Source: a virus
IMG/VR virus record: IMGVR_UViG_3300025237_000001
Coordinates: 133,359-197,358 of that record
Length of the DNA: 64,000 bases
Reading direction: 5' to 3' (one strand)
Shown piece by piece: positions 62,391 through 63,709 of the stretch. Position 1 is the stretch's first letter; each line of letters opens with the position of its first letter. The translations under genes and the position numbers were made by a program. A model generated the notes under the pieces. That model worked only from the letters and a program-made list of their open reading frames with translations. It did not search any database and was not told the origin of the DNA.

Positions 62391-62467
62391 TGTGTGGTAA
62401 CCAGCATGTCTGATAAGCATGACTAAGGTAGCGGTTGTAAACAAGGGTTCGAATCCCTTCCACACAA
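62391..62467 (+). ncRNA. re-wired D-arm-less tRNA-Ile(GAU)-like RNA #1
   Basis: TGTGTGG/CCACACA-A; 7-nt linker; CATGT-CT-GAT-AA-GCATG; 8 nt; AGCGGT; T-arm. Confidence 0.7.
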
Positions 62468-62471
62468 CAAT

Positions 62472-62575
62472 GGGTAATTAGCTTAAAAGGTAAAGCATCG
62501 AAGGTCACGTAGTGTATCCGCACAGGGTGATGTACACAACCGATTATATGGACTCGAAATTCATACTATCCACCA
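62472..62575 (+). ncRNA. tRNA-Ala-like RNA (G3.U70, CCA) with pseudoknot replacing anticodon loop
   Basis: GGGTAAT/ACTATCC-A-CCA; D-arm GCTT/AAGC; ATCG/CGAT; GTCAC/GTGAT and GTGTA/TACAC. Confidence 0.65.
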
Positions 62576-62581
62576 AAAAAT

Positions 62582-62662
62582 GGGCATATACCGAGCCAGG
62601 CTGATAACTTGGATATTCGTAGTGGTATGTGGAAGACGTGGGTTCGAATCCCTCTGTGCCCA
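62582..62662 (+). ncRNA. re-wired D-arm-less tRNA-Ile(GAU)-like RNA #2
   Basis: GGGCATA/TGTGCCC-A; TACCGAG; CCAGG-CT-GAT-AA-CTTGG; ATATTCGT-AGTGGTA. Confidence 0.75.
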
Positions 62663-62711
62663 CCGAATCAATGTTTTTGTACTTTACATTATTTTCTACA
62701 TATTTATTAAT

Positions 62712-63350
62712 ATGGGAAGAAAAGCAAAAAAGTATCATTATATTTATAAAACCGTAAATGTATTGAGTGGAAAATATTATATTGGAATGCATAGTACAAG
62801 TAATTTAAATGATGGTTACCTAGGTAGTGGAACTAGATTGAGATATTCAATCAATAAACATGGTAGGGATAACCATAAGGTAGAGATTCTTGAGTTCTGT
62901 GATACAAGAGAGTTATTAAAACAACGTGAAGAAGAGATTGTCACAATGAATGAGATAGCTAAGGTAGATTGTATGAATCTTCGAGTAGGTGGTGAAGGTG
63001 GTTTCAGTAGTGAAGCACATCGTATTAAATGTTCTAAGGCTGGTAGTGATGCTTTTAAAAAAAGGTATTATAATGACACTAAGTTTCGTGAAAATTTTAT
63101 TAAGTTTAAAAAACTTGAAATGGATATATTACGTAAAGATGGTAAGATAACCACTTGGAAAGATAATTACGATTGGACTGGTAAAAAACATTCTGATGAA
63201 ACGAAACTTAAAATGAGTAAATCAAAAAATATTGGGAAAGTAAATTCCCAATTTGGTAAATGTTGGATTACCAACGAAGTTGATAATAAGAAGATAATAA
63301 AGGGAGATTCACTTCCAGATGGATGGAGATTGGGTCGAGTAATGAAATAA
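62712..63350 (+). CDS. GIY-YIG/NUMOD3 homing endonuclease (Seg-like)
   Basis: HYIYKTVN..KYYIGMHS..YLGSG; GKKHSDETKLKMS. Confidence 0.9.
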   Translation: MGRKAKKYHYIYKTVNVLSGKYYIGMHSTSNLNDGYLGSGTRLRYSINKHGRDNHKVEILEFCDTRELLKQREEEIVTMNEIAKVDCMNLRVGGEGGFSSEAHRIKCSKAGSDAFKKRYYNDTKFRENFIKFKKLEMDILRKDGKITTWKDNYDWTGKKHSDETKLKMSKSKNIGKVNSQFGKCWITNEVDNKKIIKGDSLPDGWRLGRVMK

Positions 63351-63373
63351 TATTAATCTTAAATCTAAAACTT

Positions 63374-63553
63374 ATGTTAGAAGAAAAAACAAAAGAAGAA
63401 TACAAAGAAGAGGGTTTGAGACGTATGAAATTACGTAAAGAAAAAAGACTCCAGAACTACATTGAAAAATGTGAAAATAAAGGAAGAGGTTGTCAAGGGT
63501 GTGGTGAAGACCCATACTGTTACTGCGGTGATGGTACTCCTTACTCTTATTAA
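63374..63553 (+). CDS. small protein with C-terminal Cys cluster
   Basis: C..GCQGCG..YCYCG. Confidence 0.5.
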   Translation: MLEEKTKEEYKEEGLRRMKLRKEKRLQNYIEKCENKGRGCQGCGEDPYCYCGDGTPYSY

Positions 63554-63556
63554 GAA

Positions 63557-63616
63557 TTGGGAATTAGCGTAGTGGTAGCGCATTTTTGCGGGGTGTTCGA
63601 TTCCCCCATTCCCGAC
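63557..63616 (+). ncRNA. 60-nt minimal tRNA-like RNA without anticodon loop
   Basis: TTGGGAA/TTCCCGA; AGTGGTA D-like motif; CGCA-TTTT-TGCG; TTCGATT. Confidence 0.5.
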
Positions 63617-63619
63617 TAA

Positions 63620-63709
63620 CGTGCAGTATCGATGGGGTCTTATATGCCTTATACTCGTAGTGGTAAGTTGAGATAATATCAAACGTGGGTTCGAATCCCA
63701 CTTGCACGA
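63620..63709 (+). ncRNA. re-wired D-arm-less tRNA-Ile(UAU)-like RNA #3
   Basis: CGTGCAG/TTGCACG-A; TATCGAT; GGGGT-CT-TAT-AT-GCCTT; ATACTCGT-AGTGGTA. Confidence 0.7.

Follow-up and report, generated by a model that had tools for sequence, protein, structure and literature searches.

Probable isoleucine tRNAs with a permuted D-arm in the tRNA array of a marine giant phage

Can an RNA whose D-loop motif comes only after its anticodon arm still work as a tRNA? This question is raised by three genes within the tRNA array of a marine giant-phage contig, of which we have analysed a stretch of 64,000 nucleotides (the window). A preliminary description of the sequence had reported three RNAs of this unusual layout with the isoleucine anticodons GAU, GAU, and UAU, and we have found all three in place, with this layout and these anticodons. 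Their parts are as follows, in positions of the window.

62391..62467, plus strand: rewired tRNA-Ile(GAU), RNA 1, 77 nt
62391-97 with 62460-66: acceptor stem of RNA 1; U8 and A9 at 62398-99, A73 at 62467
62400-02 with 62427-29: D-like helix of RNA 1
62405-21: anticodon hairpin of RNA 1, with GAU at 62412-14
62430-35: D-loop motif of RNA 1, with G15 at 62431; C48 at 62442, T-arm at 62443-59
62582..62662, plus strand: rewired tRNA-Ile(GAU), RNA 2, 81 nt
62582-88 with 62655-61: acceptor stem of RNA 2; A73 at 62662
62592-94 with 62617-19: D-like helix of RNA 2
62596-62612: anticodon hairpin of RNA 2, with GAU at 62603-05
62621-26: D-loop motif of RNA 2, with position 15 at 62622; C48 at 62637, T-arm at 62638-54 with one U-U mismatch
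63620..63709, plus strand: rewired tRNA-Ile(UAU), RNA 3, 90 nt
63620-26 with 63702-08: acceptor stem of RNA 3; A73 at 63709
63630-32 with 63655-57: D-like helix of RNA 3
63634-50: anticodon hairpin of RNA 3, with UAU at 63641-43
63659-64: D-loop motif of RNA 3; extra variable hairpin at 63668-71 with 63679-82
63684: C48 of RNA 3; T-arm at 63685-63701

The order of the parts is the same in all three: a 7-bp acceptor stem, U8-A9, a short helix enclosing the anticodon hairpin, the D-loop motif AGYGGT, and, 3' of this motif, a variable segment, a normal T-arm (5-bp stem and TTCGAAT loop), and A73. The anticodon hairpin has a 5-bp stem and a 7-nt loop with U33 and A37, and is flanked by a 7-nt linker beginning with UA on the 5' side and an 8-nt spacer on the 3' side. 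A D hairpin is missing from its usual place: between position 9 and the anticodon arm only 7 nt are found, and the D-loop motif comes 3' of this arm. The hairpin had been called perfect; it is indeed fully paired, but contains 1, 1, and 3 G-U pairs in RNAs 1, 2, and 3, respectively. Linker and spacer do pair and covary as had been proposed, over 3 bp rather than 2. The bases 3' of A73 are not CCA in any of the three genes.

We have scored the RNAs with R1, a covariance model of the layout, and obtained 77.7, 84.9, and 79.2 bits for RNAs 1, 2, and 3 (E about 1e-22); 31 bits is the most that any canonical tRNA of this genome reaches. The layout in the three RNAs is well past chance expectation. 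Common tRNA finders, as the preliminary description had expected, miss or mis-score these genes. ARAGORN calls no tRNA at RNA 1 or RNA 2, and at RNA 3 it reports Ile(tat) in a different fold, with the anticodon TAT taken from 63650-52, a 2-bp D stem, and an anticodon stem closed by a mismatch. The Rfam tRNA model (RF00005) gives 38.4 bits to RNA 1 and 36.2 bits to RNA 2 (gathering threshold 29 bits), but needs to delete the D-arm, setting 4 nt against 15 model positions, and to insert 18–22 nt; RNA 3 is absent from the Rfam tRNA list at the gathering score. Mis-annotation was also seen: in one case a hypothetical CDS had been placed over the gene, and in another ARAGORN called a rewired Arg gene 'Asp(atc)'.

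Pattern scans of viral contigs together with R1 have yielded 51 distinct relatives sharing the layout, and a later scan has added 17 further distinct sequences. The model building and homologue search that the preliminary description had suggested have thus found family members with this spacing and covariation in viral contigs. The 51 members comprise 40 of Ile/CAU type and 11 of Arg type. The observation that all copies are Ile holds within the window but not for relatives of the same architecture, which also carry CAU, UCU, UCG, and ACG. The exact 7/8-nt linker/spacer spacing likewise holds in the window, while in the family it is found in 32/40 of the Ile/CAU-type members, the others having 7/9 or 8/9; the Arg-type spacing is 8/7. 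The acceptor/T-stem partition is 7/5 in the three RNAs and throughout the family. The 9-nt insert behind the extra hairpin of RNA 3 recurs in orthologues (L004, L129, L144, L145, L047, and L258), and in the close L004 orthologue of RNA 2 the acceptor and anticodon stems have changed in a compensatory manner.

With one family pattern, 31 viral contigs were positive and no member was found in the genomes of 185,579 bacterial and archaeal species. Ten bacterial pattern matches turned out to be the 3' ends of tmRNA genes in Gemmatimonadota MAGs (22–28 bits under R1), and ARAGORN found no tRNA in the two of them that were checked. A 15-base UAU-type pattern hit 101 viral stretches, which are raw matches and not the family size; of the 62 new loci from this pattern, 21 are true members and 41 chance matches, 40 of these lying in unrelated, apparently coding DNA and 1 adjoining an ordinary tRNA. 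The matches of the first broad pattern were mostly ordinary tRNAs and tmRNAs, and were set aside. BLAST searches of GenBank phages with RNA 2 and a consensus-like UAU member gave a single match, the uncultured 642-kb record LR756502.1, and with RNA 1 gave none; no cultured phage carrying an Ile-type member was found in this way. Candidate carriers of the family among cultured phages are Pseudomonas phage PA11 (NC_007808.1, about 47672-47751, rewired Arg with UCU) and Maribacter phage Panino (PP540027.1, about 28066-28145). Our literature search, which is no proof of absence, found no publication describing the layout.

The homologues allow the proposed helices to be judged by covariation. Among 28 Ile-type sequences, 97.0% of the cells are paired versus 65.5% in shuffles, 17/20 pairs change on both sides, and the covariation score is 0.788 versus at most 0.13 with the partners slid. 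All four helices covary, the acceptor in all 7 pairs and the anticodon stem in all 5. The mean column identity is 69%, which indicates that the homologues are not recent copies of one sequence. For the nesting helix alone, 94% of the cells are paired versus 70% in shuffles, and its score is 0.67 versus at most 0.12. Its first pair is C-G in 28/28; its second is G-C in 15, A-U in 9, and C-G in 4, i.e., paired in 28/28; its third and innermost shows four pair types and a mismatch in 5/28, RNA 1 among them. RNAalifold predicts this helix unaided; an extra GYG/CGU helix that it also draws shows no covariation and was dropped. Overall, the earlier claim that the D-stem equivalent is nested under the anticodon arm, with the GG motif moved 3', is supported by these homologues, to a degree that the three copies by themselves would not have allowed. 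Single-sequence folding speaks neither for nor against the fold proposed here, which it does not single out: RNAs 1, 2, and 3 have z-scores of -1.65, +0.11, and -1.91, respectively, and the minimum-energy structure includes the nesting helix in RNA 1 only.

The genomic setting may point to tRNA pseudogenes in decay, or to chance look-alikes left by rearrangements, since genes of two homing endonucleases lie inside the array, and gene finders reject two of the three RNAs.

59171-59626: HNH homing endonuclease gene, in the array
62580-63350: NUMOD3 homing endonuclease gene, in the array

We regard this origin as scarcely credible. Dozens of viral contigs share the layout, every helix shows compensatory changes, the tertiary positions are invariant, and the E values under R1 are about 1e-22; the covariation effectively refutes the pseudogene reading. 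As to the surroundings, each gene stands a few bases 3' of a tRNA-like element; RNA 1 follows a tRNA-Arg by about 70 nt. A promoter and terminator scan of 58300-64000 gave counts no higher than in shuffles. Among the datasets listed as matching 62300-63750 none is an RNA dataset, and the only full match is a marine DNA run, perhaps of the sample from which the contig came.

We have further compared the positions expected to make tertiary contacts. U8, A9, A14, and the U preceding A14 are invariant in 51/51 members. D-loop base 2 and the base directly before the T stem combine as G-C in 35, A-U in 15, and G-G in 1 (n = 51), so that 50/51 members have G-C or A-U, while the maximum in 100,000 shuffles is 42. 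Both states are found inside each of the GAU, UAU, CAU, and UCG groups. In canonical tRNA, positions 15 and 48 form the Levitt pair. Judged from the aligned sequences, the covariation between D-loop base 2 and the pre-T-stem base matches this pair, and it supports the view that the relocated motif behaves as a genuine D-loop. Taken together, the nesting helix and the 15-48 covariation suggest that the L-shape is probably retained despite the new strand order, a three-dimensional fold that we infer from covariation and layer counting.

These data also bear on a reading closer to the outputs of the tRNA finders, namely that the RNAs are D-arm-less tRNAs with an enlarged variable region, in which the linker-spacer helix is absent. 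Either AGYGGT would sit in a hairpin of its own, closed by the 3' end of the spacer and the pre-T-stem bases (a D-arm moved wholesale), or, as in the ARAGORN fold of RNA 3, a residual 2-bp D-arm would be combined with a class-II-like variable arm. Rfam aligns RNAs 1 and 2 as a D-arm deletion with a variable insertion, ARAGORN draws a cloverleaf-like fold for RNA 3, a genuine extra hairpin exists here in RNA 3 and its orthologues, and the last bases of the spacer can pair with the pre-T-stem bases (62635-38 in RNA 2) in 95% of cells. However, in this spacer/pre-T-stem helix no pair changes on both sides, and its sole variable column faces a G that never changes and fails to pair in 4/28, whereas the same column pairs with the linker in 28/28 with three pair types. 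The helix would also take the base that covaries with D-loop position 15 and break the first T-stem pair. We have rejected it for lack of covariation, and the ARAGORN fold of RNA 3 is weakened by its 2-bp D stem and the mismatch closing its anticodon stem. A D-arm-less structure is therefore very unlikely in our judgement.

The reading that we prefer is that the three genes are probably functional elongator tRNAs for isoleucine with a permuted D-arm. The acceptor stem, T-arm, and anticodon arm would be standard, and only the D-arm would be permuted. After U8-A9, the chain would enter the 3-bp helix from the top and run straight into the anticodon hairpin; on its return it would climb the other strand of the 3-bp helix and only afterwards form the D-loop (A14, R15, Y16, G18, G19, and U20), followed by a short variable segment ending at Y48 and by the T stem. 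The stacked layers would come in the canonical order of 5-bp anticodon stem, 26-44-like pair, short helix, U8-A14, and R15-Y48, followed by the elbow of G18/G19 with the T-loop. The RNAs may be transcribed as part of the phage tRNA array, have their ends processed by RNase P and 3' nucleases, and receive CCA from a phage or host enzyme, after which host IleRS would charge them via the anticodon, A37, and A73. The two GAU tRNAs are predicted to read AUU/AUC and the UAU tRNA to read AUA, and they would serve an AT-rich phage with a high use of Ile and of AUA codons. As context, the window contains a gene of the CCA-adding enzyme family.

53694..54848, plus strand: tRNA nucleotidyltransferase (CCA-adding)/poly(A) polymerase family gene, whose product has a Pfam PolyA_pol head domain (E 1.1e-35) and an RNA-binding domain

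In bacteria, A73 and U20 are identity elements for Ile and A20 for Arg (PMC9976931, Table 1). The equivalent of position 20 agrees with this division: it reads GGU in the three RNAs and in 40/40 Ile/CAU-type members, and GGA (A20) in 11/11 Arg-type members; A73 is present in all Ile-type members. The bacterial tRNA-Ile set comprises A73, A35 and U36 with G34 or modified C34, and A37, and further includes A38, C4-G69, C29-G41, G16, and U20 (PMC9976931, Table 1). All three RNAs have A73, A35, U36, and A37, while U34 of RNA 3 is outside that set. C4-G69 is found only in RNA 2, A38 only in RNAs 1 and 2 (U in RNA 3), and C29-G41 in none, the 29-41 pair being U-A, A-U, and G-C; position 16 is C or U, not G.

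The ORFs of the window use 81 Ile per 1000 codons at 32% GC, and AUA makes up 34% of the Ile codons. A search of this contig and of three complete relatives gave no phage IleRS (PF00133), so charging would fall to the host enzyme. TilS (PF01171) was not found in this contig or the same relatives either. The preliminary description had also proposed that UAU would bypass lysidine; this proposal is plausible and fits the absent TilS gene and the heavy AUA use. Relatives also carry rewired CAU forms.

Codon use and gene content are of interest for another explanation, according to which the RNAs are tRNA mimics acting outside decoding, either as decoys for anticodon nucleases or other defences, or as titrators or regulators of IleRS or tRNA-modifying enzymes. 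A canonical tRNA-Ile(GAU) lies directly beside the rewired copies in the complete relatives G001 and G003, so the rewired GAU copies are not needed merely to supply that anticodon. The window also contains other tRNA-shaped RNAs, which lack a usable anticodon.

62472-62575: tRNA-shaped RNA without a usable anticodon
63558-63611: tRNA-shaped RNA without a usable anticodon

Moreover, a role of phage tRNAs in countering defences that target tRNAs has been proposed (PMC10264068). There is, however, no need for a nuclease decoy to keep the 15-48 pair, the isotype-specific base 20, A73, and an intact acceptor/T minihelix all at once; the anticodons correspond to codons that the phage uses heavily, AUA and AGA; and the rewired UAU tRNA is the sole UAU tRNA in three complete relatives. 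We therefore consider such mimicry unlikely. In particular, the earlier idea of evading an Ile-tRNA-targeting defence, or of an Ile-specific decoy, is not indicated, and the CAU and three Arg anticodons in relatives weaken it.

If the three RNAs are tRNAs with a permuted D-arm, they differ from their closest known counterparts. Canonical bacterial and phage tRNA-Ile (GAU, more rarely UAU; RF00005) share with them the 7-bp acceptor, 5-bp T stem, TTCGAAT loop, A73, 5-bp anticodon stem, 7-nt loop, U8, A14, G18-G19, the covarying R15-Y48 pair, and the location in tRNA arrays, but in the rewired genes, of 77–90 nt, the anticodon arm stands between the two D-stem strands, with the D-loop coming after them. 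The red alga Cyanidioschyzon merolae has circularly permuted tRNA genes, in which a circular intermediate restores a normal mature tRNA. The segment order departs from the cloverleaf there too, but with the present RNAs no circular permutation would lead back to the canonical order, and the covariation speaks for a fold in which the new order is used as it stands.

Animal mitochondrial tRNAs lacking the D-arm, e.g., tRNA-Ser(AGY), have lost the D-loop and its G18/G19 elbow contacts and work with co-evolved factors (PMC4013460, PMC7609411). They resemble the rewired RNAs in having few nucleotides between the acceptor and the anticodon stem and an effectively longer helix on the anticodon side. 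On the other hand, the rewired RNAs keep AGYGGT, a canonical T-loop, and the 15-48 covariation, and must use bacterial host machinery. Extra nucleotides between the anticodon arm and the T-arm are also found in class II tRNAs (Leu, Ser, and bacterial Tyr) and allo-tRNAs. Class II tRNAs, however, combine a long variable arm with a normal D-arm, which the rewired RNAs lack, and among the three only RNA 3 has a hairpin in the variable segment; allo-tRNAs have 8/4 or 9/3 acceptor/T stems (PMC5389517), not 7/5, and in the rewired RNAs the extra segment holds the D-loop itself.

We think it possible, though doubtful, that the rewired fold is part of a systematic second set of non-standard tRNAs, which these giant phages would carry alongside standard copies and which would keep translation going under defence. 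This set may comprise the rewired Ile and Arg together with long-variable-arm His, Met, and Asn, and in relatives may also include Thr, Gly, Lys, Gln, Asp, Val, and Cys. With it, phage translation could continue after host defences, or the phage itself, had cleaved, depleted, or sequestered the cloverleaf tRNAs. If so, tRNA architecture, beyond the sequence of the anticodon loop, would be a target in the phage-host arms race, and bacterial synthetases, EF-Tu, and ribosomes would accept a non-cloverleaf tRNA.

If the RNAs are charged and decode, they would be a natural counter-example on bacterial machinery, with a core made of the same pieces joined differently. They would show how far recognition by RNase P, the CCA-adding enzyme, IleRS, ArgRS, EF-Tu, and the ribosome rests on shape rather than on chain connectivity, and would be a natural scaffold on which to design orthogonal tRNAs. 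Phage tRNA inventories would then be under-counted and mis-annotated, and one would have to ask why viruses alone keep the fold. An Arg-type member is present in the cultured Pseudomonas phage PA11, which makes the question directly testable.

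The three RNAs lie exactly at the positions assigned to them in the preliminary description, and our parsing has recovered the part order that it had proposed:

62391-62467 (+), rewired RNA #1, Ile(GAU)
62582-62662 (+), rewired RNA #2, Ile(GAU)
63620-63709 (+), rewired RNA #3, Ile(UAU)

In each, a 7-bp acceptor stem is followed by a 7-nt linker starting with UA, by a hairpin of 5 bp with a 7-nt loop containing U33, A37 and the anticodon (GAU, GAU and UAU, respectively), by an 8-nt spacer and the D-loop motif AGYGGT, and then, after 7, 11 or 20 nt, by a standard T-arm and A73.

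We have scored the proposed structure on 28 Ile-type sequences aligned with MAFFT (mean column identity 69%). Paired cells amount to 97.0%, while the shuffles show 65.5% and none of 500 reaches the observed value; both-sided changes occur in 17 of the 20 pairs, and the covariation score is 0.788, compared with at most 0.13 when the partners are slid by 1–3 columns. The helix between linker and spacer, which encloses the anticodon hairpin, has C-G as its first pair in all 28 sequences. Its second pair is also formed in 28/28 (G-C 15, A-U 9, C-G 4), and the third is A-U in 11, G-C in 8, G-U in 2 and U-A in 2, with 5 mismatches. Considered by itself, the linker-spacer helix has 94% of its cells paired (70% in shuffles) and a covariation of 0.67 (at most 0.12 when slid), and RNAalifold, given the alignment as sole input, predicts the same helix. 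The linker-spacer covariation first noticed in the three copies is therefore borne out by the 28 sequences, in a helix of three pairs.

A covariance model of the layout and a search of viral sequences, suggested earlier as a check, have yielded homologues with the same architecture. When viral contigs were scanned with an exact pattern of the GAU layout, five proved to have this architecture with different stems, and two broader scans added further relatives, UAU forms included. The model gives 77.7–84.9 bits to the three RNAs versus 31 bits to the highest-scoring canonical tRNA in the same genome, and finds 51 distinct members across 45 sources, with the anticodons UAU (24), GAU (13), UCU (6), UCG (5) and CAU (3); a later scan contributed 17 more distinct sequences, one ACG form among them. 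Since Ile, CAU and Arg anticodons all occur among the members, the architecture is common to Ile, CAU (Ile2 or Met) and Arg tRNAs, and the earlier idea of a defence directed specifically at tRNA-Ile is thus not supported.

U8, A9, A14 and the U before A14 are invariant in 51/51 members. At the second position of the D-loop motif and the position directly 5' of the T stem, 35 members have G-C, 15 have A-U and 1 has G-G; the matched state in 50 of 51 is reached by none of 100,000 shuffles (maximum 42), and both G-C and A-U states are present inside several anticodon groups. The canonical 15-48 Levitt pair shows the same kind of G-C/A-U covariation. Such covariation is not expected if AGYGGT instead sat in a hairpin of its own, closed by pairing of the spacer's 3' end to the nucleotides that precede the T stem, and this alternative pairing, which we have rejected, shows both-sided changes in 0 pairs. 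For the rewired structure, the layers comprise the 5-bp anticodon stem, a 26-44-like pair (G-A 16, U-A 10, C-A 9, others 16; n=51), the 3-bp helix and a Y-U layer, equal in count to the anticodon stem, 26-44 pair and 4-bp D stem of a canonical tRNA, and the U8-A14 and then R15-Y48 layers keep their usual order. Considering that both count and order match, we infer that these RNAs would form an L-shape with permuted strand connectivity. The structural interpretation in the preliminary description is thus supported by the helix covariation together with the 15-48-like covariation. In addition, the base following GG is U in 40/40 Ile/CAU-type and A in 11/11 Arg-type members; A20 is the main determinant for bacterial ArgRS, and the E. 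coli Ile identity set includes U20 and A73 (PMC9976931).

One family pattern matched 31 viral contigs, and had no members in 185,579 bacterial and archaeal species (one genome each), where its 10 matches are tmRNA 3' ends. Among GenBank phages, the Ile type is confined to LR756502.1, an uncultured record of 642 kb, and the Arg type was found unannotated in cultured phages:

NC_007808.1:47672-47751, rewired Arg(UCU) of Pseudomonas phage PA11 (its relatives also have the gene), 51.6 bits with the covariance model
PP540027.1:28066-28145, rewired Arg(UCU) of Maribacter phage Panino, 44 bits

The PA11 gene overlaps the end of an annotated HNH CDS, and that of Panino lies inside a tRNA array, beneath a CDS annotated 'hypothetical protein'. 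Full-text literature searches found no description of the rewired layout, and according to a 2024 paper every known bacterial tRNA is a cloverleaf (PMC11551756). As had been anticipated, gene finders miss or mis-score these genes. ARAGORN makes no call at #1 or #2, and folds #3 with a 2-bp D stem, using another TAT triplet; the Rfam tRNA model gives 38.4 bits (#1) and 36.2 bits (#2), only via a D-arm deletion and an 18–22 nt insertion, and leaves #3 unlisted at its gathering score. A rewired Arg(UCU) gene in the complete relative genome G003 (G003:C1:157655-157734) is mis-annotated by ARAGORN as 'Asp(atc), 81 nt'.

In the window ORFs, Ile accounts for 81 per 1000 codons, AUA for 34% of Ile codons and AGA for 65% of Arg codons. 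Among the complete relatives, rewired GAU and UAU genes stand next to a canonical tRNA-Ile(GAU) in both G001 (360 kb) and G003 (353 kb). In G004 (288 kb), a rewired UAU gene is accompanied by an Ile(GAU) of 87 nt whose D-arm is normal and whose variable arm is long; in all three, the sole UAU tRNA is of the rewired type. That canonical GAU copies exist alongside speaks against the rewired form being a mere substitute, and would be compatible with a decoy role or a defence-evasion rationale. Neither IleRS nor TilS genes were found in the contig of the window or in these three genomes, so the host enzymes would have to accept the rewired fold. Judging from sequence, the three RNAs are probably working Ile tRNAs with a permuted D-arm, their charging, decoding and three-dimensional fold being putative.

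In some relatives, an 85–87-nt tRNA-Ile(GAU) with normal D-arm and long variable hairpin stands next to the rewired UAU gene, and may be an intermediate or parallel form:

G004:C1:95477-95562, long-variable Ile(GAU)
L145:7598-7683, long-variable Ile(GAU), related viral contig
L134:6526-6610, long-variable Ile(GAU), related viral contig

The window forms the terminal 64 kb of an IMG/VR viral contig of 197 kb and 32% GC, which comes from a marine metagenome and has a completeness of 56% (CheckV). A dense tRNA array extends from 58.6 kb to the contig end, and ARAGORN reports 17 tRNA genes in the window. Besides HNH homing endonuclease, DnaJ and ClpP genes near the array, the surroundings include:

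46161-46535, tmRNA gene, 375 nt
49046-49121 and 50537-50610, two CUA (amber suppressor) tRNAs
53694-54848, CCA-adding-type nucleotidyltransferase gene, near the array
58667-58752, 59706-59790, 60866-60953 and 61644-61729, long-form tRNAs (His/Met/Asn)
59949-60029, tRNA with 2-nt anticodon per ARAGORN
60978-61598, HisRS-like fragment (206-aa ORF), inside the array
62580-63350, homing-endonuclease-like ORF with NUMOD3 motif and, by eye, a GIY-YIG-like N-terminus

Reading TAG as sense brings little gain in ORF length in the window. The match of the 206-aa ORF to the HisRS/class II synthetase core (Pfam E 3.7e-22) is confined to the N-terminal catalytic half of that core, and the ORF is the section of the array region closest to the huge-phage records LR756502.1 and LR745206.1. 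The NUMOD3 ORF lies between #2 and a small Cys-rich ORF; it looks like an insertion, because in G001 the Cys-rich ORF directly follows the #2 orthologue with no endonuclease gene between.

The long tRNA-His, Met and Asn of the window measure 85–88 nt and have a variable-region hairpin, and for His and Asn they stand beside a normal 73–77-nt copy. The same doubling in G001 covers Thr, Gly, Lys, Gln, Asp, Val, Cys, Asn and His, and suggests a systematic second set of class-II-like tRNAs.

Between #1 and #2, a 104-nt tRNA-shaped RNA (62472-62575), called by neither ARAGORN nor Rfam, has a paired acceptor stem, normal D-arm, CTCGAAA T-loop, A73 and encoded CCA, with a structured insert of ~40 nt in place of the anticodon arm. 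Immediately upstream of #3, a tRNA-like RNA of ~57 nt (63558-63611) has an acceptor stem, normal D-arm and T-arm, and 8 nt instead of the anticodon arm. This element is conserved, since G001 has a counterpart after the same Cys-rich ORF with a compensatory acceptor change from A-U to C-G. Finally, an AT-rich unit of 40 nt is repeated in tandem ~2.5 times at 62150-62247, immediately before the tRNA-Arg(UCU) at 62249; its core 15-mer has three occurrences there and none elsewhere in the window, and the unit may be a promoter or regulatory repeat.
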